From positions 1 to 64,000 of IMG/VR virus record IMGVR_UViG_3300035661_000046: DNA of 64,000 nucleotides, one strand, 5' to 3'. The notes beneath the pieces are model-generated. The model saw nothing but the letters and a program-made list of their open reading frames with translations. It searched no databases and had not been told where the DNA came from. This stretch comes from a virus. Its lineage: Duplodnaviria; Heunggongvirae; Uroviricota; Caudoviricetes. Of the stretch, positions 32,564 to 63,316 are shown piece by piece (position 1 is the stretch's first letter; every line of letters begins with the position of its first letter). Position numbers and translations under genes: made by a program.

Positions 32564-32827
32564 CACTTAGTCTACTACTTTCGTAATAGAGTGGACTATA
32601 CCATTACCCTTTTCTAAAACACGCTTTTACGAGGGTATTCGCCGTATTATACCTAGTTAAAGGTATCGCAGCAAGATCTGTTCTAGATCTTCTGTCAGTC
32701 TCTGAACCATTTATACCAATCCCTTGGTATTCTGGCTGCTGATTGCCATACCTAGTATCTAGGGTTAGGGTTCCAGCAATTGAGCGAATTTTTAATACAG
32801 CATTACTACCGTATGGCACCTAAGTTA
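32564..32827 (-). mobile_element. group I intron (ORF-less, 264 nt) in the DNA polymerase gene
   Basis: It interrupts Pol A between motif B and the following helix. Predicted P1: exon ggcaU paired with intron GUGCC (U-G at the splice site). The intron starts taacttag and ends ...ctaagtG. It shares four conserved blocks with the rtcB intron, including a P7-like AUAGUCC element. Confidence 0.65.
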
Positions 32828-33783
32828 ATGCCGAATGTTAACGCTTTTGCTGCTTGTCTATAACCCTTATACTCCTTATATAAGGGATGTCCGGGATTAT
32901 CGACGATAGAGATAAACTCATCGTAGTCTAACCTTCGCATTGCACTAGCCGAGAAGGAGTGGAAATCCTTACCTTCTTCAATAGCCTTAAGTAAAGTAGG
33001 ATCCTTACATAGCGCTCCTAGAATCTTTACTTCGGCACTAGAGAAGTCTAAAGCAATAAACACATTGCCATCTGCTACCTTAAAGCATCTACGTACATTA
33101 TACCCATGCTTAGGTCTAGGTAACTGAGTTAAGTTAGGGTTATCACCAGTTATACGGAAACTACTAGTTCCGTGTAGGTTATAAGAAGGATGTACTCTAC
33201 CATCAGGCTTAACGTGGTCTTCTACGTAAGTCTTAATAAAAGTACGGTGAGCACTAGCAATGTCATTGCGTTTTGCTATATCTGCCAAGTAAGGGATTCT
33301 AGCAGATTTAACCAAGGCGGCTAATGCATCACCATCAGTAGAAGGAGATCCTGTCTTAGTTAAGAAAGGTGGAGTCAATCCTAACTCTCCGTATAAGAAA
33401 TCGCCTAGTGCAGCTCCAGAGTCTAAGTCTACCGGATGACCAATCGCAGTAAAAATAGAATGTTCCAAAGAAGCAATCTCTGCTTCCATTTGACGATTCA
33501 TTTGTCTATTAAGCTCGATGTCATACTCAATGCCATTGAGTTCTAAGTCACAGATAAACTCAAAAGCTGGCATTTCGTATTTGCGTATTGCTTCTAGTAT
33601 AGAAGGAATCTTACCCTTTGTTAATTTCCCATGAGTAGAAGTTACATACAGGGGTTGCTCAATAATTCTGGGAAAAGTAGCAGCCAGTATTTCTGAGGTT
33701 GTAATGCAGTCTATACCCGCGTACAGTAGCAAGTCTTCAACTGGATAATCTTCATATGTGTTATATATCGGTTTTTGTTCCAT
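32828..33783 (-). CDS. family A DNA polymerase, polymerase subunit, exon 1 (palm/fingers incl. motifs A and B)
   Basis: Motif A ALDFSSAEVKIL (DYSQIELR-like) and motif B RQAAKALTFGI(LYG). The tracked ORF reads into the intron and stops after ...FGINLGAIR. Confidence 0.7.
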
Positions 33784-34123
33784 TGGCTTTTTTATGCTCC
33801 TGTACTATTTCCTGAAACCTATCTAAAATTAAAGCGTCTCTAGTAGCCAAGTTGCTTAGCTCATTTTCCAACTCAGAAAGCATCTCTTCGGTATCTTCAG
33901 CTAAACCCATTAAAGTAGGCTCCATAAATCTAAGAGTATCTAGCTGAGCTTTAATACCACTAGCCTGAGCTAGGATATGTGCACTCTCCACTATGATGTT
34001 CTCTGCTTCTCTACTACCCAAGCTTTTTACTAAAGCAAGGATTACTTCATGAGGATCAATATCATCTTCTCCTGCTGTTACCTCTACTGCGTCCTCTACT
34101 TCTACTGGTTTAAACTTACTCAT
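33761..34123 (-). CDS. hypothetical acidic protein lying between the exonuclease and polymerase genes
   Basis: 120 aa; ATGA-type overlap with the exo gene stop, and a 23-nt overlap with the pol start. Confidence 0.45.
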   Translation of the reverse strand: MSKFKPVEVEDAVEVTAGEDDIDPHEVILALVKSLGSREAENIIVESAHILAQASGIKAQLDTLRFMEPTLMGLAEDTEEMLSELENELSNLATRDALILDRFQEIVQEHKKANGTKTDI

Positions 34124-35366
34124 CTATCTCATCCTCACTTTCATTATTATTAACTAACTTAGTTAATTTTGGTAGTTTATCTTCATAACCCCCAAGACCT
34201 GTATGTGGTATCCAATCCCATACAGCTCGTTTAAGACCATAGTTCTTATTAAGTCCAGAGTTTATGTTATGAAGAATTAGCATCGTGTCGAACACGATTC
34301 CTTGTATTCTAACACCGGTACAGCACATAGTGTATAAAACATCAAACTTTATGTTATGCCCGACTTTCTTAATGTCAGGGTTTAGTAGAATCTTTGCAAT
34401 ATATTCCCAGGCTATGTGTGGATGGAACCACGTATTTTCTCTATGCCACAGAGGTATTACTAAAGCTTCAATATACCCCTCTGCCGTTCTATACCCAAAC
34501 TGAGCAGTTATTATCTTTGCTGAGTTAGAGAAAGGATCTAGGCCGGTAGTTTCTAAGTCGAAGCTTATTACAGAAGTACTAGGCAGGTTTGAAAGAATAT
34601 TAGTGAAGGTAACTACCTCACTTATAGATCTGGCTATTTTGATATGTTTAGAATACCTCTCTAACGCATCTGCCAGTTTAGGAACCACCAGAGCTCCTCT
34701 AGCTAGCCTACTAGCCTTCTCGAAGTCCCGATCTATCACTTCTAAGAAATCCGTCCCCCACATCTGTCCTGATGAGTTCTGACGTATCATAGTAGTTACT
34801 TTAGGATGCAAAGTGATTACCACGTTAGAGACAAAGTCATTACTGTGTATTTCTCCTCGGTTAGCCGTGTTACTCACTGTACTAAACCCAAGTTCCTTAG
34901 TCACCGCCGTGGTTAGACTTATTATTACTTTTGGGTTAGCCCTACGTATCTCTTCTAGTAAGTACGGGGCACATCTTCTAAGCACTGTCTGAGCGGGGGC
35001 TTTACCCTTGTTTATATCTAAGCCTTTTATCTCGCACTTAGTCAAGTTAGTAGTACGGTAAGAAAGCTTTGAAAAATGCTTAATAGCTAAGTAGTTAATA
35101 ATGTTACTGTGGATTTGGTTTATTTCATCTCCCGTGTAGAAACCCTCAGTAAAGGCTCGGTGATCCTGTATTATTAAGATGTCTACGGGAGTGTGATTGA
35201 GAAGTACTAGGTCAGGAGTTTTACATTTCAGTGTACACACTTTGTTACAGTAGCTAGTAGAGATCTGAGAGAAATCCTCTTTCTGAATTATTGCTGATTT
35301 TACCGCAGGAGTTATCTTAGGTCTGTTGTATAAATCTGATAAAGGTAAATCTATTAATTTTGCCAT
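34116..35366 (-). CDS. 3'-5' proofreading exonuclease protein (DnaQ-like domain of a split family A polymerase)
   Basis: Exo I VISFDLETTGLDP, Exo II GHNIKFDVLY and a YxxxD-like region near the C-terminus. It is encoded as a separate ORF from the polymerase domain. Confidence 0.65.
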   Translation of the reverse strand: MAKLIDLPLSDLYNRPKITPAVKSAIIQKEDFSQISTSYCNKVCTLKCKTPDLVLLNHTPVDILIIQDHRAFTEGFYTGDEINQIHSNIINYLAIKHFSKLSYRTTNLTKCEIKGLDINKGKAPAQTVLRRCAPYLLEEIRRANPKVIISLTTAVTKELGFSTVSNTANRGEIHSNDFVSNVVITLHPKVTTMIRQNSSGQMWGTDFLEVIDRDFEKASRLARGALVVPKLADALERYSKHIKIARSISEVVTFTNILSNLPSTSVISFDLETTGLDPFSNSAKIITAQFGYRTAEGYIEALVIPLWHRENTWFHPHIAWEYIAKILLNPDIKKVGHNIKFDVLYTMCCTGVRIQGIVFDTMLILHNINSGLNKNYGLKRAVWDWIPHTGLGGYEDKLPKLTKLVNNNESEDEIDE

Positions 35367-35470
35367 ATTGTTGTTTTTCTAAAAAAGTTAGTATCTCACA
35401 TAAGGAAGTCGAAGTAAATCCCGAGGTTTTAATACAAGGATCACCTCGAGTATACAGATGTTCCTATAGT

Positions 35471-35480
35471 ACTTATACCA
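35471..35480 (-). promoter_or_regulatory. extended -10 promoter motif copy upstream of the exonuclease gene
   Basis: acttatacca about 105 nt upstream of the 35366 start. Confidence 0.4.
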
Positions 35481-35489
35481 TGTAATCAA

Positions 35490-36090
35490 AGAGTTATGAC
35501 TACTTGCACTGTAATTTTGTCCAGCCTGGACATGGCATGTCCCATCTAGAAAACACTTTGTCCACCTGTTTTCTTAATCAAATCATAGACTTACCTCACT
35601 TCTGGACAAAAAGACACGTGGACATTCAAAACAATATAACAAGTATTAAAAATAAGAATATCACTATAAGAATATTTCAAGGACAAAAGACAATCAGACA
35701 TTCAAAATATAAGCTACTTTGTGGAGAATGAAATACCACTATGAATTATGAATTATTGTTAACACCCTCTCTTATATATATAAATATACTTTTTAATTAA
35801 CTATATATATAAGGGATGGCTTTTTAGCCCAAAACAAATTTTTATGGCTAGAATATATTTCTCACAAAGTGTCTTATATTTTGAATGTCTGGTTGTCTTT
35901 TGTCTTGAAATATTTTTTATAGTGATATTCTTTTTTTTAATACTTGTTATATTGTTTTGAATGTCCACGTGTCTTTTTGTCCAGAAGTGAGGTAAGTCTA
36001 TGATTTGATTAAGAAAACAGGTGGACAAAGTGTCTTTTCGATGGGACATGGCATGTCCAGGCTGGACAAAATTATGCCTTTTTCTTTATA
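35490..36090. repeat. ~600-bp palindrome: ~215-bp inverted-repeat arms (over 90% identical) flanking a ~150-bp AT-rich core; candidate replication origin
   Basis: Arm 35505-35720 is the reverse complement of 35865-36085 (tttgtccagcctggacatg.catgtccca ... cagacattcaaaatataag). The arms carry repeated TGTCCA/TGGACA and GACATTCAAAA motifs. The core has nested TATATATA palindromes. It lies between the polymerase and primase-helicase genes. Confidence 0.7.
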
Positions 36091-36384
36091 AGCTATTGTT
36101 TATTAAAGATAAATAGTTTTGAGAAATGTCCGTCGCTGGGCACTTCCACCACGCGCTATATCAGTATTGGCAGTGCTTTTCAGAACTAAGGCAGTATTTC
36201 TTATTCTTCCAGCTTATCGTCTATACCTACAGCTTTTCTAAGTCGACAGGATACTATTAAGAGAATAGTGGTAGGAGCCTCTAAATGATCCTAGGATCGA
36301 TTTATTTACTTTTAATGGATACTTACATAGGTTTACCAAACTAACCCTCCTACGGCCTTTTCTCCTCTATATTTAAAGTGCACC

Positions 36385-36423
36385 TAAAAAAGAAACCCCG
36401 CCTGGTGTGGGCGGGGTTTTAGT
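36385..36423. terminator. strong rho-independent terminator (bidirectional geometry)
   Basis: GC hairpin aaaccccgcc tggtgtg ggcggggttt with an A-run before and a T-run after. In the minus sense it lies downstream of 36445..36753. Confidence 0.75.
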
Positions 36424-36444
36424 ACTACAGAAACTTATGCTTGT

Positions 36445-36753
36445 TTAAGCAGGTCGGTGAATCTTAGCTTTCTTGGCATATACTGCACGAGGAGTAAAAC
36501 TAAAGTTCACAGAGAGTAATCCTCTATCATAAGCAGCACGAACAGCATAGAACTCATCATCTGCAGTAACAACTCCTAACAGAGGAGGAACGCCCCATTT
36601 CTCATTCCAGTTATCTGGATAGATCTTATATAGATTCTTACCAGATATTGGGTATGGACCAATTCCTAAGTTTGGTTTAAAGGGTCTACGAACAGCTGGA
36701 GTAGACGACTGAGTTTGATTCTGGTTTCTATTAGTATGGTTATTTGTTTTCAT
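36445..36753 (-). CDS. hypothetical protein
   Basis: 102 aa, Asn/Gln-rich N-terminus. Confidence 0.45.
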   Translation of the reverse strand: MKTNNHTNRNQNQTQSSTPAVRRPFKPNLGIGPYPISGKNLYKIYPDNWNEKWGVPPLLGVVTADDEFYAVRAAYDRGLLSVNFSFTPRAVYAKKAKIHRPA

Positions 36754-36759
36754 GTTGTC

Positions 36760-39573
36760 TTAAGTCAAATCAAAGAAGTTGGCAATATTCTGCACCGTTT
36801 CAGGAGCAGTATCTAAGTCTAATACAGTTACGCGTCTTTGTACAGAGTTTAATCCTAAATTTTTCTTACACTCTGCAACAAAATACTTTTCTTCTCGTAA
36901 GGCGCCTAATATTGCACCCTTAGAGAAGTCCTCTCTTGGGCCACGCTGTTCTGCTTGTACTATGTTAAACACAGCGGGAAACCAGATGTATAGTTTATTA
37001 CCCTCTTTACGCATATGATCCACGGTAATCTTGGGCCGCTCTCCTACTTGTAAAGTCTCTACAAAGTTAAAGAACTGTAAAACCATATCCTCTTTCTCCT
37101 GCTCAATCGTATCCTCTTTAGATATATTTGAGACGTATGTTGTAAAATCAAAAGTAGGAAAATACTTCTCTGCAAACTGCTTTGCAAAATACCCCACTGA
37201 TGCCCAGTTTTTAGAAGTTCTAGATTTACATCCCCCCTGCTTGATAAAACTTTCAAACTCTAATATTTCCTGTATAAGTTCGACCTTATCTACTTTTGTA
37301 GAATCCACTATCCACTTGGCTCCTATTGCAGAAAGGTCAGCCTTCATGTCTTCTATAACAGCATACGACTCAACTGTCTCCCTACCATGAATAGGAATTC
37401 GGATTGGGACACATCTCTGCCTTGTAGCACTATCAGCAAACTGGTCTTGGCCAACAAAGATAAAGTTAGACTTAACCAGCTGACTGCGTATTCCAAAACC
37501 TTCTCTTGTACCCATATCTCTAGAAGCACGATGGAACCAAGTGCGGAATGTACCCTGTAAGTCTACCGTTTCTCTATCGCTACGAATCTCATCGAGAATC
37601 ATAGGCAAGGATGCATAGTATGCAATCTTACGACTATATCCAACACCTGACTTAAAGGTAGGCACTGTACCAAACCCAGACTCTTCCATGTTAAACAGAG
37701 ATAATAACCAACGAGCTATATGAGTCTTACCTTCTCCTTGTCTACCCCAAAAGAATAGAAAAGGAATAGATCCATACTTACGGTGAATGAAATCAGAATA
37801 CACATTCATCTTTATCCAGCCCATCATGGTTAGAACCATACCGATGTCACCTAAGTTCCTAGCAAGTTGAAGTACAAAAGTCTTTTCCATCTCCTCTACT
37901 TCATCAGGGTCCATGCTGCAGTTTATGAATGGAATATCTAGCCTATCCTCTGCTTTAGAAGTAGCACCTGTATCTAGCGACACTGGCTTAATACCTGCTG
38001 CTGTACCACCTAGCCACATAATACCATCTTTATCAGGCTCAATGATTTTACCTGTTTCTGAGATGAAGCAGTTGCGGAATAACCACCCTTTGAACTCAGG
38101 AATTCTACCTACAGTAGTCGGTAAGTGAACTTCATTCTCCTTGCCTGTAGCGTAGATATAGTCCCATAGGGTAGCTAAGTCATCTTCTCTACCGTAGAAG
38201 GATGCATCTATAGCGTTAGCAAGCAGAGCCTTAAAGGCTTTAAGAGATACCTTAACTTCAGAAGTAACTCGGATAGACCTACTCTTTCTACCATCCTCTC
38301 GAATAATCTGAACCTCACGTTCTCTCATCTCTCCTTGAATAAAGATATTCTTTAGATCGACTTTGAAGTTGGTTAGTTTATTCTCGATAGGTAAGCCATC
38401 CTTCCAGCGAATTTTATAGTAGCAGTTATTCCTGAGAATAATATTGCCACGCCCTTCTACCTCTACTTCCGAACCTTCTGAGTCTGTATTTGTACTAGAG
38501 GTATTAACCACAGCTCCAAATACTTTTATTACTTCCGGTAGACTACTAAGACCTTTCTTAAGACACTCATCAATGTCTTTAACGCCGTCTAGTCCGATCT
38601 TAACCTGCACTAATGACTTTAGCTTTGGACGGACCTTCTCCATTTTCGCACGGTACTTATCCCCAGCATCATCAGAGTCAAAGATGGTAATGATATTCTT
38701 ATCCGATAGGTGATCCACTACCCATTGAACTTGAGCTCCACTAAGTTGCCCAATAGAACCGATAACACCGTACATGGAAGAGGCAGGGTCTTCCATAACA
38801 CTTAATAAGTCATTCTCTCCCTCAACCATTATTACAGTATCTTTTGTAGAGATTGTATCCTGGCCGTAGAAGGTATGCTGGTTAAGCTGAAACTTATTAG
38901 GTAGTTGATACTCCTTTACCTTCATTGGGTCTTTGAAAGTAAAGTGGGAGACTCGGCCTTTTACTAAATGAGCGTAAATAAATACTCGGTGTGGAAGAAA
39001 ATCTCCAGTGCCTTTCTTATTTACTAACCCTGTTTGAATTAGTAAGTCTTGACTAAAACCAAGACTATCTAAGTACTGAACTAGCTTACCGTCTGACCAA
39101 CCAACTTTCATATTGGTTAGTGTGGATAGAGAGTGCTTTCTCACGTCAGTCTGATACTCAAGAGGTGTCATGCTCAATAACTCTTGCATTGGCTTATTAG
39201 ACTCATCTACTAAACAGTTATGATAGTAGTCTGCTGCTAGATTGAAAATCTCCTGTGCAGGAGAATAGTCATTTGGTATTTGAATACTAAAGTCTTTTGC
39301 TATCTTTAACGCTGCTTCTCTGGGAGTTAGCGATAAGAGCTTACCTACAAATCCTATTGCGTCCCCTGTCTCATCACAGCTAAAGCACTTATAGAAAGCA
39401 GGCTCTTCCTCACTTTCTTCGTCTTTGACCTTAAAGCAATCATTATGACCGCAGAAAGGGCAAGACTTATCCTCTAATTGATATGTGTTTGTGCCACACT
39501 CTACTACCTCCGAATTAGCATATTTAGAAATCACCTCTTTGAGGTCTACGTTTGATTTTATTACTTCGAACAT
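36760..39573 (-). CDS. bifunctional DNA primase-helicase
   Basis: N-terminal zinc-binding CPFCGHNDCF...CFSCDETGD (primase Zn-ribbon). TOPRIM motifs IMVEGENDLLSV and FDSDDAGDKY. C-terminal Walker A GRQGEGKTHIARWL and Walker B-like ILDEIR. 937 aa. Confidence 0.75.
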   Translation of the reverse strand: MFEVIKSNVDLKEVISKYANSEVVECGTNTYQLEDKSCPFCGHNDCFKVKDEESEEEPAFYKCFSCDETGDAIGFVGKLLSLTPREAALKIAKDFSIQIPNDYSPAQEIFNLAADYYHNCLVDESNKPMQELLSMTPLEYQTDVRKHSLSTLTNMKVGWSDGKLVQYLDSLGFSQDLLIQTGLVNKKGTGDFLPHRVFIYAHLVKGRVSHFTFKDPMKVKEYQLPNKFQLNQHTFYGQDTISTKDTVIMVEGENDLLSVMEDPASSMYGVIGSIGQLSGAQVQWVVDHLSDKNIITIFDSDDAGDKYRAKMEKVRPKLKSLVQVKIGLDGVKDIDECLKKGLSSLPEVIKVFGAVVNTSSTNTDSEGSEVEVEGRGNIILRNNCYYKIRWKDGLPIENKLTNFKVDLKNIFIQGEMREREVQIIREDGRKSRSIRVTSEVKVSLKAFKALLANAIDASFYGREDDLATLWDYIYATGKENEVHLPTTVGRIPEFKGWLFRNCFISETGKIIEPDKDGIMWLGGTAAGIKPVSLDTGATSKAEDRLDIPFINCSMDPDEVEEMEKTFVLQLARNLGDIGMVLTMMGWIKMNVYSDFIHRKYGSIPFLFFWGRQGEGKTHIARWLLSLFNMEESGFGTVPTFKSGVGYSRKIAYYASLPMILDEIRSDRETVDLQGTFRTWFHRASRDMGTREGFGIRSQLVKSNFIFVGQDQFADSATRQRCVPIRIPIHGRETVESYAVIEDMKADLSAIGAKWIVDSTKVDKVELIQEILEFESFIKQGGCKSRTSKNWASVGYFAKQFAEKYFPTFDFTTYVSNISKEDTIEQEKEDMVLQFFNFVETLQVGERPKITVDHMRKEGNKLYIWFPAVFNIVQAEQRGPREDFSKGAILGALREEKYFVAECKKNLGLNSVQRRVTVLDLDTAPETVQNIANFFDLT

Positions 39574-39647
39574 TTTTTATTACCATTATCCATTAACTTT
39601 GAACTGTAATAATACACTACCCTGCATGAGCGGTAAAGCTTATTACT

Positions 39648-40235
39648 TTACCTGATAACAGGATCAAACTCTCTAGACCCATGTTGATCCACTGGTTTGA
39701 ACGTTTTATTACTCATTAGCACTTTGACTTCCTCATAGCTTATTGGTGCATAATTATGACAATCGACTCCAACATCAAGCGACAGAGAGTTAGGATCATC
39801 TGGTAATGTTCCGTGGCTATGACCATATAAATGCCAAGCTCCGAAGTGAGATTTATTCCATACCTTCATGGCATAATGAAGCAATACTATTCTCTGTTTG
39901 CCAGAATGGCAATCCGAGTCTATAACGTCTATTTCTAGTATATTGTGAATGCTATATAGGATTCTTTCTATATTTTTCCACTTGTGTATTACTTTATCGT
40001 GGTTGCCTAGAATTAAAACCTTTCTACCGTTAAGTCTGGCGAGCACCTCTTTTGTTTCATCCTCTTTACCAAAGGAGATATCCCCGACCATATACACAGT
40101 GTCCTGGTTAGTAACCTTGTTATTCCAATTAGTCACCAGTGCTTCATTCATTTCCTCTACACTGGAATACGGTCTATTGGAGTGTTTGATTACGTTCTTA
40201 TGAAAGAGATGTAAATCGCTGGTGAAAAATTCCAT
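39648..40235 (-). CDS. metallophosphoesterase (calcineurin-like; possible SbcD/Mre11-like nuclease partner)
   Basis: Motifs DLHLFH, GDISFG, LILGNHD and GHSHG. 195 aa. Confidence 0.6.
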   Translation of the reverse strand: MEFFTSDLHLFHKNVIKHSNRPYSSVEEMNEALVTNWNNKVTNQDTVYMVGDISFGKEDETKEVLARLNGRKVLILGNHDKVIHKWKNIERILYSIHNILEIDVIDSDCHSGKQRIVLLHYAMKVWNKSHFGAWHLYGHSHGTLPDDPNSLSLDVGVDCHNYAPISYEEVKVLMSNKTFKPVDQHGSREFDPVIR

Positions 40236-40236
40236 A

Positions 40237-41115: not shown

Positions 41116-41122
41116 TTTATTA

Positions 41123-41659: not shown

Positions 41660-41737
41660 TTTATTGCCTTAATTATTATTATTGAGTTTTAGCTAAAAAA
41701 GAAAAGAGGGACTTTCATCCCCCTTTAATGTTACATC

Positions 41738-42574: not shown

Positions 42575-42784
42575 TATTTTTTGCTTTCTTGTTTCTATCA
42601 GTTATTGTTACATGAGACTAAAATATACGACTTGTTTTCTACTACATCACGAAGTTCATTATAACTTAATTTCCAAGTTTCAGCTATTCTATCCGATACA
42701 ATTCCTTTACTGTATTCTTCAAGATCCTTATCCGTTAAGGTGACGCTACCCGACTTTTCAAGCATAAAATGATCCCCGTAATTT

Positions 42785-42794
42785 ACTTATACCA
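42785..42794 (-). promoter_or_regulatory. extended -10 promoter motif copy in the divergent control region
   Basis: acttatacca in the 42600-43070 intergenic region, where the minus block meets the + strand sigma-factor gene. Confidence 0.4.
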
Positions 42795-42807
42795 CATAAA
42801 TGCGATT

Positions 42808-43005: not shown

Positions 43006-43073
43006 TCTAACTTCTCCTTTTATTAATTAATAATGATTATATTCTAGCATCTATATTATAAGTATGCAACTAT

Positions 43074-52020: not shown

Positions 52021-52044
52021 GGTTAGGTAATACTAGTTGAATGC

Positions 52045-52713: not shown

Positions 52714-52726
52714 ATATTACTCCTGT

Positions 52727-52760: not shown

Positions 52761-52780
52761 TGGTTTAAGGCCTACTACTA

Positions 52781-55581: not shown

Positions 55582-55617
55582 ATTGCCTCATTATTATTGT
55601 TCTATTAGAAAATACTA

Positions 55618-55971
55618 CTAGTTTCCGTACATCAACTTCTTAAACTCTACTGCATTCTTTACTCGTTCTTCCCGCCATTCTTTAAAAATACTACTATACT
55701 CCGTACCTGTATCTTGATTACGAGAAATGTAAGCATCTATTTCTTCTTCCGTCATTGGCCTAACCGAGGATAGGTCTTGTAGGTTTTTAAAGTCAGTCGC
55801 CCCTCTTCTTAAATAAGAAAGGCCTCCATCCGTATATACATCTCCACACTTGCACTTTACGAAGTCATGTCTGTGAGTACTCTCAATTATATCGTTACAA
55901 CGAAGGCATTTAACTCTGTTTGCAGTCAGGAGGTAAAAGTCTTCAAACCTTTGCTGATCACTTAAATCCAT
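55618..55971 (-). CDS. zinc-ribbon protein of unknown function
   Basis: CLRCNDI...HRHDFVKCKCGD four-Cys cluster. 117 aa. Confidence 0.4.
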   Translation of the reverse strand: MDLSDQQRFEDFYLLTANRVKCLRCNDIIESTHRHDFVKCKCGDVYTDGGLSYLRRGATDFKNLQDLSSVRPMTEEEIDAYISRNQDTGTEYSSIFKEWREERVKNAVEFKKLMYGN

Positions 55972-56000
55972 TATACACTTTCCTTATTAAAAACTACAGA

Positions 56001-56492
56001 TTAAATACTAGGTAAAGATGATTTTAACAGCACATCCAGGAATACTACCTCTACTCCAGCTTCGCTAAACATCTCTAGTGTCATCTTAAAACTTTCGCCA
56101 TAAGTGGCATCGTTAAAGTCGGGGCTGACCTCCACTACAACCTTGATTATACCAGACTGAATGATGGCTCTTGCACACTCCTGGCATACAAAAAGAGTGG
56201 TAACAAAAATACTGCAACCCTCAGTAGAGGTTCCCACCTTGGCTGCAGCGTATATTGCATTTCTCTCAGCGTGTTCACTAAAGAAGTACTTAGTAGGGCG
56301 AAGATGTCTCTCTTCCACATCATCGTTGACCTTTCTAGGGAATCCATTATACCCGGTTGATCTGATTCCCCAGTCAGGCCCAGCTATTAATGCCCCTACT
56401 TTTCTACTTCTATCTTTACTAAGCTTGCTTACACTCTTTGCTATTTCCATGAAGTGAGATAGTTTTTCTATGCTCGCACTCACTCTTAGCAC
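56001..56492 (-). CDS. dCMP deaminase
   Basis: Zinc-binding motifs HAERNA (H-A-E) and CQECARAI (PCxxC-type) in a 163-aa cytidine/deoxycytidylate deaminase fold. Confidence 0.75.
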   Translation of the reverse strand: MLRVSASIEKLSHFMEIAKSVSKLSKDRSRKVGALIAGPDWGIRSTGYNGFPRKVNDDVEERHLRPTKYFFSEHAERNAIYAAAKVGTSTEGCSIFVTTLFVCQECARAIIQSGIIKVVVEVSPDFNDATYGESFKMTLEMFSEAGVEVVFLDVLLKSSLPSI

Positions 56493-56893
56493 TTAACCTT
56501 TTCTGCGTGCTGCCAGTATCTCCACTGAGTTTGTAAGGACTCAGTAGTGCCATCTATAAATGCGGCAACCTTATTATTGTGAGTATCAAACTCTTTAAAC
56601 CTACGCAGATATTTACAATCGGGGTAGTAATCATCCCACACCTGAATTACTTCCCCTACTTTAAATTCAGAGTAAGGAGTCCACTCTGCTATAATATCAA
56701 TACTAGAACTATGCTGATTATAATATTTACCTGTGGAGGTCCATTCTCTTACTAATTCTTCACCTGTCAGTAAGGTCATAGTTCCAACACAGTTAAACAC
56801 ACACCCGTTTCTAAGACCAGTTCTAATAATAGTAACTTTATCTCCACCCCTTGTAACGTAAACCTTACCTTCTTCTAATGTAATTGTGTTCAC
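56486..56893 (-). CDS. hypothetical protein
   Basis: 135-aa ORF. Confidence 0.45.
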   Translation of the reverse strand: MNTITLEEGKVYVTRGGDKVTIIRTGLRNGCVFNCVGTMTLLTGEELVREWTSTGKYYNQHSSSIDIIAEWTPYSEFKVGEVIQVWDDYYPDCKYLRRFKEFDTHNNKVAAFIDGTTESLQTQWRYWQHAEKVKC

Positions 56894-57075
56894 TATAAAC
56901 CTTTCTTCAATGTTTTAAAAACAGCTCGTTCTACTTTACTAGTGAGCTTTGTGTACTCAGAGTGTACAGTAATATGTCGCACTCGTGGTTTCTTTTTAGG
57001 ACCAGCCTTGGTTGTAACCCGCATTATAGTATCTATTCTGCGGTTTTTATAAATGACGGTTACTACTTCCATTTA

Positions 57076-57891
57076 CTAAAATCTCCTACTTGGGTTATTG
57101 TGATTTGAACCTAGAATATTAAGTCTTATACGCTCCGCTTCTGAAAAAAGCTGAGACGCAGTATTTTCTCTTCGAGCTCTTCCTAGTGATTGCGCGGTTA
57201 TTCTACCATCTGGTAAAACAGGGCTAACTCTTGGCGGAGGTGGTGGAGGAGGAATATGGTCTCTGGTATAGTGGTAAGCATTTTCAAAATAGTAAGTAAT
57301 AGGCCCAGTGCCCCAATAACCATCCGTATACCCCTCAGAGGTAGTATGAATAGAAACGCCAGGGGGAGTGCGGAATGGAATAGTAGTACTAGCACCTGTA
57401 CCAGCGTAATACGGAGTAAAGTTTCTGTTAAGGTTCACTGTAGTAGAATCTATCTCCATAAATCCTAAAGGCAGTGACTGCTGCTGCCAATACCTATTTT
57501 TTTCTTTTAGTATCCCTACTGATAGTAGACTTACACTGAACCCTATTACGTTCAACCACTCTACTTCGGGGACTTCAATCTTAACTTCTTCCTCAACTAT
57601 ACTGGCTATTAGAAGTTTTCTCTTTACCTTATAGATTAAGACCCCAAGCCTCTCTCGTAAAAGAAATCTTACAAGCCTACTCTCTCTAGCAGCTGCTGCA
57701 TTGATGTAGTATGCTACTCCTTTATTTTTACTATTAAAGCAGGCAATGGGATTCTCATCTAGATAGAAGGTAGCAGTATCACCTGCTATGAACAAGTGAG
57801 TTTGTTTAGTGTGAAATGGCTCCCAATACTTCAACCCTTGAATTAATTTCGGCCCTATACTTTTCCCATAATTTTGAAAATCAGGATTCAT
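57076..57891 (-). CDS. hypothetical protein with a poly-proline tract
   Basis: 271 aa; contains PPPPPPPR. Confidence 0.45.
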   Translation of the reverse strand: MNPDFQNYGKSIGPKLIQGLKYWEPFHTKQTHLFIAGDTATFYLDENPIACFNSKNKGVAYYINAAAARESRLVRFLLRERLGVLIYKVKRKLLIASIVEEEVKIEVPEVEWLNVIGFSVSLLSVGILKEKNRYWQQQSLPLGFMEIDSTTVNLNRNFTPYYAGTGASTTIPFRTPPGVSIHTTSEGYTDGYWGTGPITYYFENAYHYTRDHIPPPPPPPRVSPVLPDGRITAQSLGRARRENTASQLFSEAERIRLNILGSNHNNPSRRF

Positions 57892-57892
57892 T

Positions 57893-58672
57893 TTATACGG
57901 CTACTTTCCCCTTTATAGCAGGATGAGATTGGTAATCTTCTAAATAAACATCGTCGAAAGTAAAAGAGAAAATATCTGTCACTTCTGGGTTTAAATAGAT
58001 CTTGGGTAAAGGTAAAGGCTCACGAGAGAGCTGCTCTGCAACCTGTGTTAGATGGTTGTTATATATATGAGCATCCCCTAGTGTGTGAATAAACTCACCA
58101 ACTTTTAGACCGCAGACTTGAGCAATCATGTGAGTTAATAATGCGTATGATGCTATATTGAAAGGTACCCCCAGGAAAGTATCAGCACTACGCTGGTATA
58201 GCTGGCAGCTTAATTCCCCATCATATACGTAAAATTGCATCAAAAGATGACAGGGAGGTAACGCCATTTCTAGGAGCTTAGGGGGATTCCATGCCGAAAC
58301 AATTAGTCTACGAGAATCAGGATTAGTTTTAATTTGATCAATCACCTCAGAGATCTGGTCTACCCCACCAAAGTCTCTCCACATAGACCCATAGACAGGC
58401 CCGAGGTCACCCTTTTCATCTGCCCAACTATTCCATATAGTAACACCGTTGTCTGTTAAATACTTAATGTTTGTATCACCAGATAGAAACCATAACAGCT
58501 CATGTACGATAGACTTGAAGTGTACTTTCTTAGTAGTAACCAACGGGAAGCCTTCTCGTAGGTCATACCGAGTCTGATAGCCAAAAACGGAAGTAGTGCC
58601 AGTGCCTGTTCTATCATCCTTACCTTTACCTTGTGTTATAACGTGTCTTAGTAGATCTTGATATTGTTTCAT
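57893..58672 (-). CDS. thyA: thymidylate synthase (ThyA)
   Basis: N-terminus [38 protein letters not shown] aligns with E. coli ThyA [38 protein letters not shown]. 259 aa. Confidence 0.9.
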
Positions 58673-58688
58673 TCTCGTTCCTTATAAT

Positions 58689-58722
58689 CTAAAAAGAGAC
58701 CGGTTAAGGTCTCTATTTTTTG
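58689..58722. terminator. bidirectional rho-independent terminator
   Basis: Hairpin agagacc ggttaa ggtctct with an A-run before and a T-run after. Confidence 0.6.
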
Positions 58723-58732
58723 TTTGTTATAA

Positions 58733-58840
58733 TTTAAGTCCTAAGATTTTAGCTATGATAACTACTAGTACATATAGTAGCACTGGTATTACTAGGGCTA
58801 CAAGTAGTACTACCCCTATGCCGCCAAATAAGCCCATGTA
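58733..58840 (-). CDS. tiny hydrophobic peptide (possible holin/antiholin-like membrane peptide)
   Basis: About 35 aa (MGLFGGIGVVLLVALVIPVLLYVLVVIIAKILGLKL), below the ORF-track cutoff. Adjacent to the lysozyme region. Confidence 0.25.
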
Positions 58841-58956
58841 AATCTCCTTTAATGAGTTGGTCTCTCGGTCATTGCTAGGTAGAATATTTTAACTATCGCT
58901 GCTAAGAATAACAATACTACAGGCGCTATTATAACAGCTAATATAAAGGTAATCAT

Positions 58957-59232
58957 TTATTTCACCCACACTTTCTCGTATCTACTAGGCAAACCTTCTG
59001 CCGGTATTGGGTGTTTAATTCCTTTGTAATCCACCAAGTAGACTGGCTCTTTAGAGCTACTGGAATACATAACTTCAGGCATTGTCCACTCAACGTACAG
59101 CGCTGAAGAAATGCCTGCCGCACCCATTACTAACAATACTACTAATACGTACACACTTTTCATACTATATACTCCTATATTTATTAAGCTCTCGCTCGTA
59201 AAGCCGTAAGTACTCAGGATTTTCTTTCCCAT
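58957..59232 (-). CDS. membrane protein (holin candidate)
   Basis: 91 aa with a TM helix VLVVLLVMGAAGISSAL. Overlaps the 3' end of the SLT gene. Confidence 0.35.
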   Translation of the reverse strand: MGKKILSTYGFTSESLINIGVYSMKSVYVLVVLLVMGAAGISSALYVEWTMPEVMYSSSSKEPVYLVDYKGIKHPIPAEGLPSRYEKVWVK

Positions 59233-59779
59233 TCTTTACAGCGGTAATACCAGAGTTATACGCCATAATAGCTCTCCGTTTAGAGTGGCCAAGTTGGGTA
59301 TAATACTGGTGTAAAATCGCTACTCCATGCTTCATGTTCAAGTACGGGTCAAACCTAGCTTCGACGGGTTCTTTTATTCCATTGGCAGAATAATTAATAC
59401 CCATCAAACCCTGTGCGATACCATTATTCGCCCTAGGGTTCATACCAGACTCAATCCCTGCTAGGGCTATTACGTCCTTTACTGTAGGAAAGCCTGGATA
59501 CATATTAGCTACCTTACTGGCAGTTGACACGATATTCCTGGCTTCACTAAGGGAAAGGTGGTACTTAGCGGAGACCACCCTGCTGAGTTTGTAGATATTA
59601 TCTTCCACTTTCTTTTTCTTTACTACCGCTTTACGCTCAACCTTATCTGCTTCCACTATAAGGATTGGTCTAGTAATTGCAGGAGTATAAGTAGCATCAG
59701 GCTTACTTAGAGGAAATATGGTAGACCCTAGAAGCAGCACTGATACTAATAGAAGGGTGGATAACAACTGCCTTACCAT
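59165..59779 (-). CDS. lytic transglycosylase (SLT-domain endolysin / cell-wall hydrolase)
   Basis: N-terminal signal/anchor MVRQLLSTLLLVSVLLLGSTIF and SLT catalytic region ALAGIESGMNPRANNGIAQGLMGINY (E-S...GLMQ-like). Confidence 0.65.
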   Translation of the reverse strand: MVRQLLSTLLLVSVLLLGSTIFPLSKPDATYTPAITRPILIVEADKVERKAVVKKKKVEDNIYKLSRVVSAKYHLSLSEARNIVSTASKVANMYPGFPTVKDVIALAGIESGMNPRANNGIAQGLMGINYSANGIKEPVEARFDPYLNMKHGVAILHQYYTQLGHSKRRAIMAYNSGITAVKNGKENPEYLRLYERELNKYRSI

Positions 59780-60033
59780 TAGGCAGCAGCCTTTAACTCA
59801 TGGACGGCATACAAGGACAACCGACGTTCCATATACGCTAATATATCCTGGAATGGATACTCTAAGACGAATCGCAAGGTTTCATGTTGACGACCATCTT
59901 CTGCCAACATTCTATATGCTTCTCTATGTTGAGGATTACTAGGATCAAACATGACGATAGGTTTTTGAACACCTATTAAGCCACGTAATTTGTTCACCCC
60001 TGGTACTTCGTGTTGAGCCGTTTGAAGTTGCAT
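59779..60033 (-). CDS. hypothetical protein
   Basis: 84-aa ORF. Confidence 0.4.
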   Translation of the reverse strand: MQLQTAQHEVPGVNKLRGLIGVQKPIVMFDPSNPQHREAYRMLAEDGRQHETLRFVLEYPFQDILAYMERRLSLYAVHELKAAA

Positions 60034-60117
60034 GATTTTTCCTTTTCTATTAGGGTTATAAGGGTAGGAGTGTATAGTTCTCCATATATATGTTGTACCA
60101 TATTATGACCCTTAAAT

Positions 60118-60399
60118 TTACTCTCCGTGATACTGCCACAACACAGCGTTGCAGTAGGCATGAACCGCCCCTATTGTCATTCCTGTATCATGGCTATGAT
60201 GTAAGTGAGTAGGGTGATTGAAGAACCCTTCTGGGAATAGTCGTCTATTAACGTAAAGGTTACTGACCTTTTTTGCAGGAGAGTCTTTCAGAGGGGCACC
60301 ACAGTGATAACAATTACCCTCCTGTATCTTGATGTACTCCTCTCTAACAGCACGCCTTTCCTGGAGAGGAGTATTACTATAATTTACTGGTAGTTCCAT
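60118..60399 (-). CDS. endonuclease VII-like (HNH-type) junction-resolving nuclease
   Basis: CYHCGAP...HLHHSHDTGMTIGAVHAYCN matches the T4 endo VII N-terminal motif C-x2-C...H-x-D-H-x-x-G...C-N. Confidence 0.55.
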   Translation of the reverse strand: MELPVNYSNTPLQERRAVREEYIKIQEGNCYHCGAPLKDSPAKKVSNLYVNRRLFPEGFFNHPTHLHHSHDTGMTIGAVHAYCNAVLWQYHGE

Positions 60400-60623
60400 T
60401 AGTTTTCCTTCACTTAATTAAATATCCAGCCATAAAGGATATTCCTATGAAGAAGATAACAAGCCCTATTGCTGGAGATACGAAATCAAATTCACTTATG
60501 GGCGTACCGAAGTGAAATATTAAGCCTACCCATACTATGATTCCAATACTACATAAAACCCAACTTGAAATAAACATTATTTCTTCCTTTTCTTTATAAC
60601 AACACAGTAATCACATCCAGCCA

Positions 60624-60926
60624 TCAGTTCTCTCCTTTGTTAAGAATCATTGGTGAGCCTGGCTCATACTTAAGCAGCCGAACATTCATTTTAAACGCTG
60701 CTGTCTTCCACATCTCCCAGTTGTTAATTGCAAGCTTAAGCTGACGACGCAGAGTGGCGATCTCATCGTCTTTTTCTTTTAAAGCCTTTTCTATCATCTC
60801 TTTGAGCTTTGCTTCTGCCTCAGAAAATCTAGTCATTGGGTTATCGGAATAGAATGAGCTTTTAACTAATTCGTGACAGTAGCTAACCTCTTCTACTTGC
60901 TCCATTATCTGCTCCACTTTACTCAC
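60624..60926 (-). CDS. hypothetical coiled-coil protein
   Basis: 100-aa ORF. Confidence 0.4.
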   Translation of the reverse strand: MSKVEQIMEQVEEVSYCHELVKSSFYSDNPMTRFSEAEAKLKEMIEKALKEKDDEIATLRRQLKLAINNWEMWKTAAFKMNVRLLKYEPGSPMILNKGEN

Positions 60927-60929
60927 TGC

Positions 60930-61112
60930 TCACTCCATTCCTACTACTCCAAAGCCCGCAAACATAACTGCTATAGCAAACACGCTAAAAGCTGCAGATG
61001 CATCCCCTAAAAAATGACTAACTATTCCAGAGCAAACACACCCAGCTATAGTTGATAGTCCCCATTGAGTTCGTACGCTATTACTCATTGTGCTCCTCTC
61101 ATTGCCGCCCAC
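60930..61112 (-). CDS. small membrane protein
   Basis: 60 aa, hydrophobic. Confidence 0.35.
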   Translation of the reverse strand: MGGNERSTMSNSVRTQWGLSTIAGCVCSGIVSHFLGDASAAFSVFAIAVMFAGFGVVGME

Positions 61113-61306
61113 ATTGCTTTGGTACTCGTCTTAGTAAGTCTACTTATATAGCTTTCATCAGTTTCTCCATAACGCTTTCCTTGCTTAGACGCTGCTAGAA
61201 AAGCATGAGACGCTGCGTTATATCCCGCTCTGCATTTGTCACAGCTACATTCATATCCGTGGTATCCTTTTCTGCTCATTCCTACTCCTTTCGCTTTATT
61301 AAGCAT
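61085..61306 (-). CDS. small Cys-containing protein
   Basis: 73 aa; CSCDKC. Confidence 0.35.
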   Translation of the reverse strand: MLNKAKGVGMSRKGYHGYECSCDKCRAGYNAASHAFLAASKQGKRYGETDESYISRLTKTSTKAMWAAMRGAQ

Positions 61307-61359
61307 TGCTTTTACCTCTTTTCAAGTTCAGATTTGACGAAAGTCGGTCCGCGTAATGT

Positions 61360-61614
61360 TTAACTTCGTTCATCCTGATCACCAATACTATTTAAAGTAG
61401 TAAGTAAAGTCATGCTTTTGTACCATTTAGAAACCGGCCTGGACCATACTGTTTGGTTTCCAATATTGATGTAGTTAACCGTCGGAGGATATTCCTCCTT
61501 TGCACTGGTCATATTGCTTATGAACAAGACGCGATATATATTGCCGTTAGTGTGGCGCCAAAGAGAGCCTACTGGAATATCTACTAACTGTAGTAGAGTA
61601 GTGTCAAGATTCAT
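61360..61614 (-). CDS. hypothetical protein
   Basis: 84-aa ORF. Confidence 0.4.
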   Translation of the reverse strand: MNLDTTLLQLVDIPVGSLWRHTNGNIYRVLFISNMTSAKEEYPPTVNYINIGNQTVWSRPVSKWYKSMTLLTTLNSIGDQDERS

Positions 61615-61681
61615 TTAATTTCCTTTATTAATATACAAGAGTACACAATTACTAGTACTACCAACATTGCTAGTAATATGC

Positions 61682-62044
61682 TCATGATACTTCCTTGAAG
61701 TCTACCGATTCACTATAGTACCCGTTGCTAGAACCATACCAACGAATATCAACATACCCTTTTACAGTAGCTAACTTGTAGAATGTCCAAGTCGAAGTAC
61801 CATATATCCTATCGCAATCCTCAGGGTAATCATTGCTAACCGATTCTTCTGCTAGAAGTATTGGTGATCCCACTAAATCAGTAAGGTCCCCTACTATATC
61901 TTCTACTGTTACTGACTCACAGCAGTCCTGTTCATGGTACAACTTGTATTGCTTACCGTTTGTTGTTGTAAATCTTATTTCTTCATCATCAACGTTTTCA
62001 ACACTGGTCATGGTTTGACCTATTAAATCTGTAAATTCCACCAT
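61682..62044 (-). CDS. hypothetical acidic protein
   Basis: 120-aa ORF. Confidence 0.45.
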   Translation of the reverse strand: MVEFTDLIGQTMTSVENVDDEEIRFTTTNGKQYKLYHEQDCCESVTVEDIVGDLTDLVGSPILLAEESVSNDYPEDCDRIYGTSTWTFYKLATVKGYVDIRWYGSSNGYYSESVDFKEVS

Positions 62045-62051
62045 GTTATTT

Positions 62052-63012
62052 CTATCCTTTTACGCACATCACTTGTTTTAGAGTATGAAGCACTGTTACT
62101 AAGTCATCCTGATTACTCATTACTGTCTCAATATCTTTATATGCCCCGGGAGTTTCATCTATTACACTTTCGTCTTTCCTACATTCAACACCTGCTGTAG
62201 CTAGCTTGTGATCCTCTATGGTAAATGTAGCTCTAGCTTTTGCACGGCTCATTGCCCGTCCAGCTCCATGAGAGCAAGAGCAGAAGGAGTCTATATTACC
62301 CTTACCTTCTACTATATAAGATCTAGTCCCCATGCTGCCTGGAATTATACCTAAGTCCCCATTACGAGCGCGTACTGCACCTTTACGAGTTATCCATAAA
62401 TTCCTACCAAAGTGATTTTCCTTAGCTACGTAATTATGATGACAATTAATAGCCTCTTTGGTTACTGTGAACTCCTTAGGAATGTGTCTGGATATTGCAG
62501 CTAATACTGAAGCCAGCATTGCCTTTCTATTCTCTAAAGCGTAGTCTTGAGCCCAATGAACAGCCTCGATATAATCATTGAAGTCCTCGTCCCCTTCTGG
62601 TAAGTAAGCTAGATCACCATCTGGTAAGTTGATGTAATACATCTCCATCTTCTTCTTGGCCTTCTCAATGAAGTAATTCCCAATCATATTACCGATACCT
62701 CTGGAGCCAGAGTGTAACATCACCCATACAGAGTCTACTTCATCCAGACAAATTTCTATGAAGTGGTTACCTGAACCCAAGGTACCCAATTGACGACTAG
62801 CCTTACCGATACCATCCCTGGCTATATCTGGATGTTTACCTAGAATTGGTCCTAAGTCTTGCAATAGAGAAAATCCTTGATAGTCTTTATGAGAACCACC
62901 TGTCCCCATAGGTATGTCTCGTTCTATTTGTTTACGAATTGTTTCTAATGAATCTGGTAGGTCGGCCGCAGTTAAACTTAGGCGTACTGCTACCATTCCA
63001 CATCCTAAATCG
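62052..63012 (-). CDS. rtcB: RtcB RNA ligase (3'-phosphate/5'-OH), exon 2
   Basis: In frame upstream of the tracked Met the sequence reads DLGCGMVAVRLSLTAADLPDSLETIRKQIE, matching E. coli RtcB DIGCGMNALRTALTAEDLPENLAELRQAIE. Later conserved blocks include MLHSGSRGIGN and CSCSHGAGR. Confidence 0.8.
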
Positions 63013-63316
63013 CGTTATTCCATTATTTCTAATGGCGTGGACTATACCATCTCTAAGGTCACTGAGTTTTATAGTCTCTACCTTAGGCTCGCCGTGTTAA
63101 TACTACACCTACCATACTTATATGAAGTATACCGTATTCCTAAATGAAAGGTAAGCAGGTAGGGTGTAGTATTCTGCACAAGTGTCTATAAAACACAGTG
63201 CAAGTCTCTGAACCATTTGACAATATCACTACTGCCTCTGGCTGCTGATTGCCCTCGACTATACGTTAGGGTTTCCAGCAATTGAGCGAGTTTTAAAGGG
63301 GCCGATTTTTTAGTTA
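63013..63316 (-). mobile_element. group I intron (ORF-less, ~304 nt) in rtcB, homologous to the DNA polymerase intron
   Basis: It separates ...IIPAAVGV from DLGCGM... (the two are contiguous in RtcB homologs). Predicted P1: exon aggggU paired with intron GCCCCU (U-G at the splice site). The intron starts taactaaaaaatcg and ends in G. It shares the blocks gtggactatacca, gtctctgaaccattt, ctggctgctgattgcc and agggtt.ccagcaattgagcga with the pol intron. Confidence 0.65.

Follow-up and report, generated by a model that had tools for sequence, protein, structure and literature searches.

In the stretch of DNA analysed here (the window: positions 1 to 64,000 of IMG/VR virus record IMGVR_UViG_3300035661_000046, a tailed-phage genome), a family A DNA polymerase gene (pol) and the RNA ligase gene rtcB, both on the minus strand, are interrupted by 264 and 304 nucleotides (nt) of DNA, respectively, and the two insertions have conserved blocks in common. 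An earlier note, made from the letters alone, had read them as an intron family spread between a replication gene and an RNA-repair gene, and as the signature of one lineage that had homed into two unrelated genes of this one genome. The question raised by the locus is whether two introns that resemble each other within a single phage are copies of one another. The comparisons reported below indicate that both elements are most probably group I introns without an open reading frame (ORF) that belong to one phage subfamily and were acquired separately, as two site-specific lineages.

Two introns in catalytic codons of pol and rtcB

The Rfam covariance model RF00028, with its gathering score of 50 bits, was used as the test for group I introns. 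The pol element (32564..32827, minus strand; 264 nt, no ORF) was assigned on its RF00028 match, P1 helix, terminal G and fold, and scored 67.9 bits (E 4e-15), above the gathering score. It cuts the isoleucine codon of polymerase motif B (FGI^LYG) after the second base, with the junctions TTCGGCAU^UAACUUAG...CUAAGUG^CUUAUACGG. The end of the 5' exon (...UUCGGCAU) pairs with GUGCC of the intron to form P1 (GGCAU/GUGCC), which has U·G at the splice site, and the terminal intron base is G. The minimum free energy (MFE) fold contained P2, P3, P4-P6a, P7.1, P7.2, P8 and P9 (z -4.9). Exon 1 of the polymerase domain (32828..33783, minus strand, from the ORF list) ends ...AKALTFG plus AU, and exon 2 (31990..32563, minus strand, stop codon included, from the reading frame) starts C UUA UAC GGC (..LYGSSVAGVAMNLG..). 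When joined, the exons read AKALTFGILYGSS, which is PolA motif B, within the predicted ligated sequence ...TTCGGCATCTTATACGG..., and give the protein AKALTFG-I-LYGSS. The spliced polymerase formed one unbroken match to Pfam DNA_pol_A (4-381/381) and aligned with Taq polymerase (AKTINFGVLYGMS) free of gaps over the motif B junction, while an unspliced transcript would meet a UAG stop at the 8th codon past the splice site. A splice site at 32572 (GUAGUAG^), suggested by the end of the Rfam alignment, was rejected because it inserts TKC in motif B, where the homologues all have F-G-x-x-Y-G.

The rtcB element (63013..63316, minus strand; 304 nt, no ORF) was assigned on RF00028, P1, P10, terminal G and fold. 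It scored 49.8 bits, with E 1.6e-11 for the region alone and E 1.1e-09 in a scan of the whole window; at E <= 0.1 that scan returned no third group I intron in the window. The valine codon of VGV^DLGCGM is cut after its second base (junctions GUAGGGGU^UAACUAAAA...GAAUAACG^CGAUUUAGG, intron end ...AAUAACG). P1 (AGGGGU/GCCCCU) again places a U·G pair at the splice site, the intron ends in G, and a P10 of 6 bp is formed between CGAUUU of the 3' exon and AAAUCG just upstream of the guide sequence. The MFE fold contained P3-P6a, P7.1, a long P7.2 and P9 (z -4.3). Exon 1 (63317..63534, minus strand, from the ORF list) encodes MSIKQ...AIIPAAVG plus GU, and exon 2 (62052..63012, minus strand, from the reading frame) runs from C GAU UUA GGA UGU GGA AUG to the stop. 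Joining them gives PAAVGVDLGCGM, the RtcB active site (protein PAAVG-V-DLGCGM; predicted ligated sequence ...GTAGGGGTCGATTTAGG..., intron-less target GTAGGCGTCGATATCGGCTGCGGT). The spliced RtcB likewise formed one unbroken Pfam RtcB match (1-426/426) and aligned with Thermus thermophilus RtcB (GGVGFDINCGV) free of gaps over the junction; the unspliced transcript would stop at a UAA in the 3rd codon.

The coordinates, strand and lengths proposed in the earlier note for both introns were exact, and its splice sites were right as judged by the U·G in P1, the terminal G and the intact joined motifs. Its statement that neither copy carries a homing-endonuclease gene also held, as no endonuclease-like ORF of at least 40 amino acids (aa) was found in either intron. 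Intron-less alleles, for which it had proposed a search, were found at both sites among the closest relatives. The intron was absent from the pol site in 10 of 10 of them; the closest among viral contigs (locus L125; loci are cited below by such numbers) has 62% aa identity and an uninterrupted AKALTFGILYGSSV, with the site sequence CTCACCTTCGGCATTTTGTACGGC. In 79 of 80 viral-contig RtcB relatives VGVDIGCG was uninterrupted, and the RtcB of Bordetella phage PHB04 aligned as one piece (68%), while intron-bearing RtcB relatives were split at residue 74 in 8 loci.

We infer that both introns are spliced, because P1, P10, the terminal G and the core are intact and because both interruptions fall in the middle of a codon of a catalytic motif. 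Each intron would fold on the pre-mRNA, with its internal guide sequence paired to the last 5-6 exon bases and U·G in P1, and would be removed by two guanosine-dependent transesterifications, which is standard group I chemistry. This would restore the codons of PolA motif B (the O-helix) and of the RtcB VGVD-GCG metal site. If instead one or both insertions had decayed and no longer spliced, the genes would be pseudogenes or would be expressed as fragments. Such a history would agree with the missing endonuclease ORF, with an rtcB intron just under the Rfam gathering score, and with a polymerase that is already in separate ORFs in this phage group. It is hard to reconcile with core helices, U·G, terminal G and P10 that are all intact and with exons that stay in frame and restore the catalytic motifs exactly over the junction; moreover, fragments broken in mid-codon within these motifs could not function separately. 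We therefore hold decay to be very improbable. With splicing as the preferred reading, both genes are to be annotated as spliced, giving a polymerase-domain protein of 509 aa and an RtcB of 392 aa. Gene callers otherwise produce four fragments, as in the GenBank records of Salmonella phage Arash, Vibrio phage D69, Providencia phage vB_PreS_PR1 (KY363465), Bacillus phage CM1 (LC785692) and Bacillus phage vB_BsuM-Goe20 (OM728301).

The shared core and the kinship of the two introns

By blastn, the two window introns were 76% identical to each other over 101 nt and 88% over 26 nt. Four blocks were placed in both by the Rfam alignment, on the minus strand and in the same order. Block 1 (AAATTCGCTCAATTGCTGGAA; J2/3-P3-J3/4-P4 5' strands) lies at 32771..32791 in pol and 63273..63293 in rtcB, block 2 (GGCAATCAGCAGCCAG; J5/4-P4'-P6 5' strand) at 32732..32747 and 63238..63253, block 3 (AAATGGTTCAGAGACT; P6'-J6/7-P7 5' strand) at 32697..32712 and 63203..63218, and block 4 (ATGGTATAGTCCAC; J8/7-P7') at 32591..32604 and 63037..63050, respectively. 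Together, the four blocks are the group I catalytic core. The sharing and the order of the blocks reported earlier were thus real, with two corrections: block 1 differs by a 1-nt indel (GGAACCC vs GGAAACCC), and the last block, said to lie 8-15 nt from the 3' splice site, lies 27 nt from it in pol and 24 nt from it in rtcB. Within the window, the 15-mer AATGGTTCAGAGACT (up to 2 mismatches) and the 16-mer of block 2 (up to 3 mismatches) were found in the two introns only. The blocks are therefore not a dispersed repeat.

Conservation of this kind could be no more than the generic constraint on any group I core, with no closer kinship between the two introns, and the blocks do coincide with the most conserved stretches of the RF00028 consensus (AAUUGCGGGAAA, AAUCCGCAGCC, GUUCAaAGACUA and AUAUAGUC). 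In contrast to that expectation, they are identical over 14-17 nt at places where both introns depart from the consensus (GCUGG vs GCGGG, CAGCAGCCAG vs CCGCAGCCAA, and GGUAUAGUCCAC vs GAUAUAGUCUAA, for example), and the core of the group I introns that interrupt this motif in the polymerase genes of phages Arash and D69 is clearly another one (GGTGAACTCAGGGAAACCCC...GGGCAATCCTGAGCCAAGC). We regard a purely generic likeness as very improbable; the shared departures from the consensus and the different Arash and D69 core define a distinct subfamily that includes both window introns. The two introns are alike because the approximately 60-70 nt that they share are the catalytic core of this widespread phage subfamily.

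Between the blocks lie the helices P5/P5a, P6a, P7.1, P7.2, P8 and P9. In 27 family members, P4 pairing was kept at 97.5%. Over P4-P6a in the same members 94.7% of cells were paired, compared to 79.6% in shuffled alignments and at most 46.6% with slid partners; cells with double changes numbered 82, compared to 26.6 in the shuffles, and occurred in 9 pairs (P4, P5, P6 and P6a). All 7 P6a pairs showed double compensatory changes. As the stretches between the blocks are helices with compensatory changes, divergence there is what is expected of a shared fold. The strands of the P7 pseudoknot, GACUG/UAGUC, were read by eye. P7.1 and P7.2 lie between the P7 5' strand and P3' in both introns, on the minus strand at 32669..32694 and 32649..32666 in the pol intron and at 63174..63203 and 63099..63173 in the rtcB intron, respectively. 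A G-U-A linker between P7.1 and P7.2 has been quoted as the criterion for subgroup IA2 (PMC3428280). This linker is missing here: CG stands in its place in the pol intron, and effectively nothing or A in the rtcB intron. With P7.1 and P7.2 present and the G-U-A linker lacking, both introns were named IA-type or IA2-like and not IA2 proper.

To collect relatives, the 15-mer that the two window introns share was used in a scan of IMG/VR, which gave at least 119 loci. Approximately 44 of these listed loci carry an intron of this type, and the remainder are chance matches; the intron-bearing loci were picked out by blastn and by the CTCAATTG...GG block. The ranks, trees and family counts given here are among the matches listed, with 41 distinct 5' cores aligned over 105 columns. 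CTCAATTG was present in 40 and AATCAGCAGCCAG in 36 of the 41 cores. A regular expression for the 3' halves (P3'-P8-P7') missed most ORF-containing pol introns, whose ORF sits in P8, and the family-wide comparison was therefore based on the 5' core. A MAFFT global alignment misplaced the 3' halves owing to the 75-nt P7.2; local blastn was used instead, and the 3' ends of the closest relatives were compared in this way. A pattern specific for P7.1 found only PR1 among viral contigs, and L216 together with a chance match (L215) in metagenomes.

Over the 5' core, the window introns were 67.6% identical. At the 49 variable columns their identity was 31%, lower than in 87% of all pairs and compared to a family median of 43%; at the same columns the rtcB intron was 84% identical to that of L045. 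The mutual ranks of the two window introns were 27/40 and 36/40. Neither was the nearest neighbour of the other in any of 1000 bootstraps, the best ranks reached being 4 and 13. The nearest neighbour of the rtcB intron was L045 in 953 of 1000 bootstraps, and that of the pol intron was L006 in 416, L060 in 220, L035 in 199 and L007 in 119, with L071 and L107 also occurring; all of these are PolA motif-B introns. These findings show that the two introns of the window are not each other's closest relatives and lack the mutual proximity by which paralogues within one genome would be recognised.

Comparisons over longer stretches gave the same picture. Against L045/L047 the rtcB intron scored 250 bits, in two segments of 137 nt (87.6% identity) and 68 nt (85%); against CM1 and Goe20 it scored approximately 176 bits. 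The pol intron was 82% identical to that of PR1 over 129 nt, with a compensatory G-C to U-A change in the P7.1 helix. Its match to L216 scored 174 bits, the identity being 80% in a segment of 129 nt and 85% in the final 48 nt. Matched with each other, the window introns reached 59.9 + 31 = 91 bits. Their peripheries are built differently. In the pol intron P2 forms a hairpin, P7.2 is short and P8 measures 31 nt; the rtcB intron has no P2, a 75-nt P7.2 and a long P8 (CCUAAGGUAGAGACU...CUCAGUGACCUUAG), and such a long P8 was present in almost all fetched rtcB-site introns (L040 is divergent) and in none of the pol-site introns. The relatives of the two also carry different endonuclease genes: LAGLIDADG in P8 in the pol lineage (PR1_122, Pfam LAGLIDADG_3, E 3e-08; L216), and HNH in P7.2 in the rtcB lineage (phrog_2255 in CM1 and Goe20; L045). 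The introns are better conserved than their host genes. RtcB of the window and of L045 are 52% identical in aa sequence, against 87.6% for the intron, and the polymerases of the window and PR1 are 26.5% identical, against 82% for the intron.

These data bear on whether reverse splicing, or an endonuclease cutting off target, moved one intron copy from pol to rtcB, or the reverse, in this phage genome or in recent ancestors of it. The four core blocks in the same order, the UAACU at the start of both introns and the C with which the 3' exon begins at both sites would fit such an event, and it does occur in the subfamily, where L051 has a core pair with 99.3% identity and L112 one with 88%. The shared blocks, however, are family-wide, and a UAAC start is nothing special, as the introns of PR1, L216, CM1 and Goe20 have it too. 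The low identity at variable columns (31%), the ranks and the bootstraps in which the other window intron is never nearest all argue against transposition, as do the far closer same-site introns of unrelated phages and the different P2, P7.2 and P8 architectures. We consider transposition within this genome very improbable. The claim that a single lineage had homed into both genes within this genome accordingly did not survive: each intron has closer same-site relatives elsewhere, LAGLIDADG-bearing in one case and HNH-bearing in the other, and the window holds no pair like the 99.3% pair of L051 that would mark spread within a genome. What stands of the proposed intron family in a replication and an RNA-repair gene is its existence across phages, with at least one further gene. 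Shared core blocks in one genome are by themselves no sign of intragenomic spread; intron kinship is to be read from the peripheral helices and from introns at the same site in other genomes.

Several points weigh against two separately acquired, spliced introns. Splicing was deduced from sequence, and the rtcB intron falls 0.2 bit below the Rfam gathering score of 50, so that the strict criterion is narrowly missed. Only the 64 kb of the phage genome visible in the window were surveyed. The relatives were recruited through the shared 15-mer, which is fair to both introns and leaves the sample incomplete. The nearest neighbour of the pol intron was unstable, and the insertion point of L006 and L007 is 2 nt upstream of that in the window. 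The tree was built on approximately 100 nt of a partly constrained core and leaves the deep branching of the family unsettled. Finally, the rtcB-site introns were not monophyletic in the neighbour-joining tree, in which L030 and L040 were placed elsewhere.

Insertion sites and movement of the subfamily

The GenBank phages matched by the pol intron region were Providencia and Proteus T5-like phages, and those matched by the rtcB intron region were Bacillus Herelleviridae and Staphylococcus, Enterococcus and Alteromonas phages. Four insertion sites were found. Site (a), in PolA motif B at GGN AU^C UUA UAY GG, is the exact pol site of the window and is occupied in PR1 and in more than 20 contigs whose PolA alignments, made by tblastn, end at residue 319, which is the pol splice site of the window. 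Site (b) lies 2 nt upstream in the same motif (GGU^AUU; L006, L007 and L082). Site (c), GGG GU^C GAY in rtcB, is the exact rtcB site of the window (L045/L047, L040, L030/L086, L118, CM1 and Goe20). Site (d) lies in a gene reading ...CFINA(L/M)VGWG^, a motif that is probably a helicase Walker A. The earlier note had proposed a search for the core blocks in other genes, and this probable helicase gene is one that carries them.

The junctions elsewhere were read in the same way. The pol junctions of PR1 are TTCGGGAT^TAAC...TGTG^CTTATATGG, and the rtcB junctions of Goe20 are GGGGT^TAACTAATCGG...^CGATATCGG. The 5' junction of CM1 is as in Goe20, and its 3' junction is ...GTA^CGACATAGG, with A preceding the exon. 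In CM1 (L003 ~3330-3345) and L118, the frame puts the CGAC/CGAT exon start right after ...AGUA; this would make A, and not the canonical G, the final base of the intron, the alternative being one extra Tyr codon. The rtcB of Goe20 (L005 3600-4685) has a second interruption downstream, with a 261-aa LAGLIDADG ORF (Pfam LAGLIDADG_3, E 1e-09), so that the gene is in three pieces, of which the record names only the last rtcB.

Arash (L001 3934-4205) and D69 (L002 3902-4420) are the closest GenBank relatives of the window polymerase. Their pol genes carry a different type of group I intron, inserted in motif B at UU^C GGN, which is 6 nt upstream of the insertion point in the window, and the pieces are annotated as separate 'DNA polymerase nu/theta' or hypothetical coding sequences. 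Identity of this intron with the window pol intron was ruled out by its other core type and its position 6 nt upstream. With the L006-type GGU^AUU site included, motif B holds three offset insertion points within 8 nt.

Locus L051 (IMGVR_UViG_3300048837_000333; the same in L115) has two subfamily introns, at 1983-2109 and 4196-4345, one in PolA motif B and the other in a gene reading ...DSCFINALVGWG^ (probably helicase Walker A). This pair is 99.3% identical over 153 nt from P2 onward, and the P1 guides differ. The introns of a pair within one contig were 88% identical in L112 and 78% in L084. We read the pairs in L051/L115, L112 and L084 as signs that introns were recently transposed, or converted, within the genomes of these phages.

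For the window, the better conservation of the introns than of their host genes, and closest gene relatives that are intron-less, point to two independent acquisitions. The pol intron would belong to a PolA motif-B lineage in which other members carry a LAGLIDADG gene in P8, and the rtcB intron to an rtcB lineage with no P2, a distinctive long P8 and, elsewhere, an HNH gene in P7.2. Most likely the two arrived separately, through endonuclease-driven homing from a co-infecting phage with the cognate intron-plus allele. The endonuclease ORF may have been lost afterwards, or variants that already had no ORF may have been acquired; ORF-less introns at the rtcB site are also found in L030/L086. We infer the route and order of acquisition, and the loss of an endonuclease gene rather than its primary absence, from these comparisons. 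Intron presence/absence polymorphism at both sites, and unrelated phages with an intron at the exact sites, are signs of mobility. Old introns that pass horizontally from phage to phage, homing at highly conserved catalytic motifs, classically leave this pattern.

A further and tentative suggestion, which we think possible and rather doubtful, is that the subfamily is an actively site-switching lineage. One ribozyme chassis occupies several targets, namely the metal site of rtcB, PolA motif B and, probably, a helicase Walker A, and in L051/L115 two sites of one genome carry the 99.3% pair with its different P1 guides. In the tree of the cores, the principal rtcB clade (window, L045/L047, CM1, Goe20 and L118) nests among pol-site introns, with L030/L086 and L040 placed elsewhere. 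If site switching is true, the rtcB lineage would have come from a PolA motif-B intron by ectopic transposition and guide retargeting, and the subfamily would be a rare traceable series of group I introns changing target genes.

Known systems and neighbouring genes

In phage T4 the nucleotide-metabolism genes td, nrdB and nrdD (sunY) each contain a group IA2 intron, and the three introns are related; Sandegren and Sjoberg (2004; cited in PMC10448857) reportedly wrote of a 'recent transfer of old introns'. As in T4, more than one essential gene of a single phage holds an IA-type intron, and these introns are akin in sequence; in both cases, too, some variants have an ORF and others none, the distribution over relatives is patchy, and the introns outconserve the exons. 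It differs from T4 in the host genes (PolA motif B and rtcB), in that neither window intron has an endonuclease gene, and in the phage group, which is Arash-like (approximately 170-185 kb).

According to the Klenow motif RRSAKAINFGLIYG, we take the pol site of the window to be the Ile/Leu-764 codon in E. coli numbering. The published PolA introns lie, in the same numbering, at 674 (SPO1, SP82, Bastille and Pf-WMP3), 676 (phiL7) and 881 (PhiI and W31) (PMC3428280). They share with the window pol intron the IA type, P7.1 and P7.2, a conserved PolA motif as target and a UAA-type stop soon after the 5' splice site. In contrast, the motif B site of the window is none of these three. HNH nicking enzymes are encoded by the published introns and LAGLIDADG enzymes by the same-site relatives of the window intron, which is itself ORF-less. 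The closest counterpart is the unannotated pol intron of PR1, which has the identical insertion point (GGN AT^C TTA TAY GG) and a UAAC start; introns of its type recur in numerous T5-like viral contigs and in L216, a metagenome contig. PR1 and L216 are 80-82% identical to the window intron over the 5' half, and their P8 loop holds a 261-aa LAGLIDADG ORF, in contrast to the 31-nt P8 hairpin of the window intron. In sequence databases, motif-B pol introns without annotation are common.

The rtcB introns of CM1, Goe20, L045/L047, L040, L030/L086 and L118, at the GGG GT^C GAY site, are likewise unannotated. They resemble the window rtcB intron in a UAAYUAAUCGG start, the lack of P2, the long P8 (divergent in L040) and 78-88% identity in both halves, and differ from it in that most carry an HNH ORF in P7.2, where the window has the 75-nt hairpin. 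A survey of Bastillevirinae introns from 2025 does not mention rtcB (PMC11878797); the bastillevirus Goe20 nonetheless has two rtcB interruptions. No description of a group I intron in a phage rtcB, and none of introns in polymerase genes of T5-like phages, PR1 or Demerecviridae, was found in the searched literature, and the Arash paper does not mention introns. The two insertion sites, PolA motif B and the rtcB active site, seem undescribed in the searchable literature. In rtcB, the intron host is itself an RNA ligase gene.

Two free-standing nuclease-like ORFs are found in the window. The first (60118..60399, minus strand; 93 aa) has a CxxC...HHSHD...H..CN motif and matched phrog_14729 (unknown function; E 1.6e-35) and, below threshold, Pfam Endonuclease_7 (20.6 bits, cutoff 23.6). 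The second (6190..6735, plus strand, opposite to its neighbours; 181 aa) had no Pfam match and matched phrog_559 (E 2e-16) and two 'homing endonuclease' PHROGs. As phrog_559 is a VSR-like 'HNH endonuclease' encoded inside Bastillevirinae TerL introns (PMC11878797), the second ORF is plausibly a free-standing homing-endonuclease-like gene. It adjoins an Ant/Rha antirepressor-type gene (5127..5813). Collaborative homing of an ORF-less intron with a free-standing endonuclease has been documented (PMC3984707; F-CphI, PMC6083498), and one of the free-standing nuclease-like ORFs of the window might, as a weaker addition to the site-switching reading, mobilise the two introns in trans. The cyanophage S-PM2 psbA intron/F-CphI system and the T3/PhiI-type systems have in common with the window ORF-less introns and free-standing nuclease-like ORFs. 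Their endonuclease genes, however, abut the target gene, whereas the first candidate lies 1.65 kb (six ORFs) from rtcB and the second more than 25 kb from either intron. Homologues of both ORFs were absent from the 214 fetched loci by tblastn. The earlier note had named the two ORFs as candidate trans-acting mobility factors, a role that gained no support from the gene distances or from the fetched loci.

The polymerase of the window is split even apart from the intron (31990..35366, minus strand). An ORF with a region like uracil-DNA glycosylase plus a 3'-5' exonuclease (34116..35366, minus strand) and the polymerase domain are separated by a 120-aa ORF (33761..34123, minus strand) that overlaps both of these neighbours, and the same split layout was found in Vibrio phage D69. 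Six tRNA genes (20883..27768, minus strand; Rfam tRNA, 53.8-68.3 bits) lie on the same strand as rtcB and pol, so that a phage-encoded tRNA set accompanies the RNA ligase gene.

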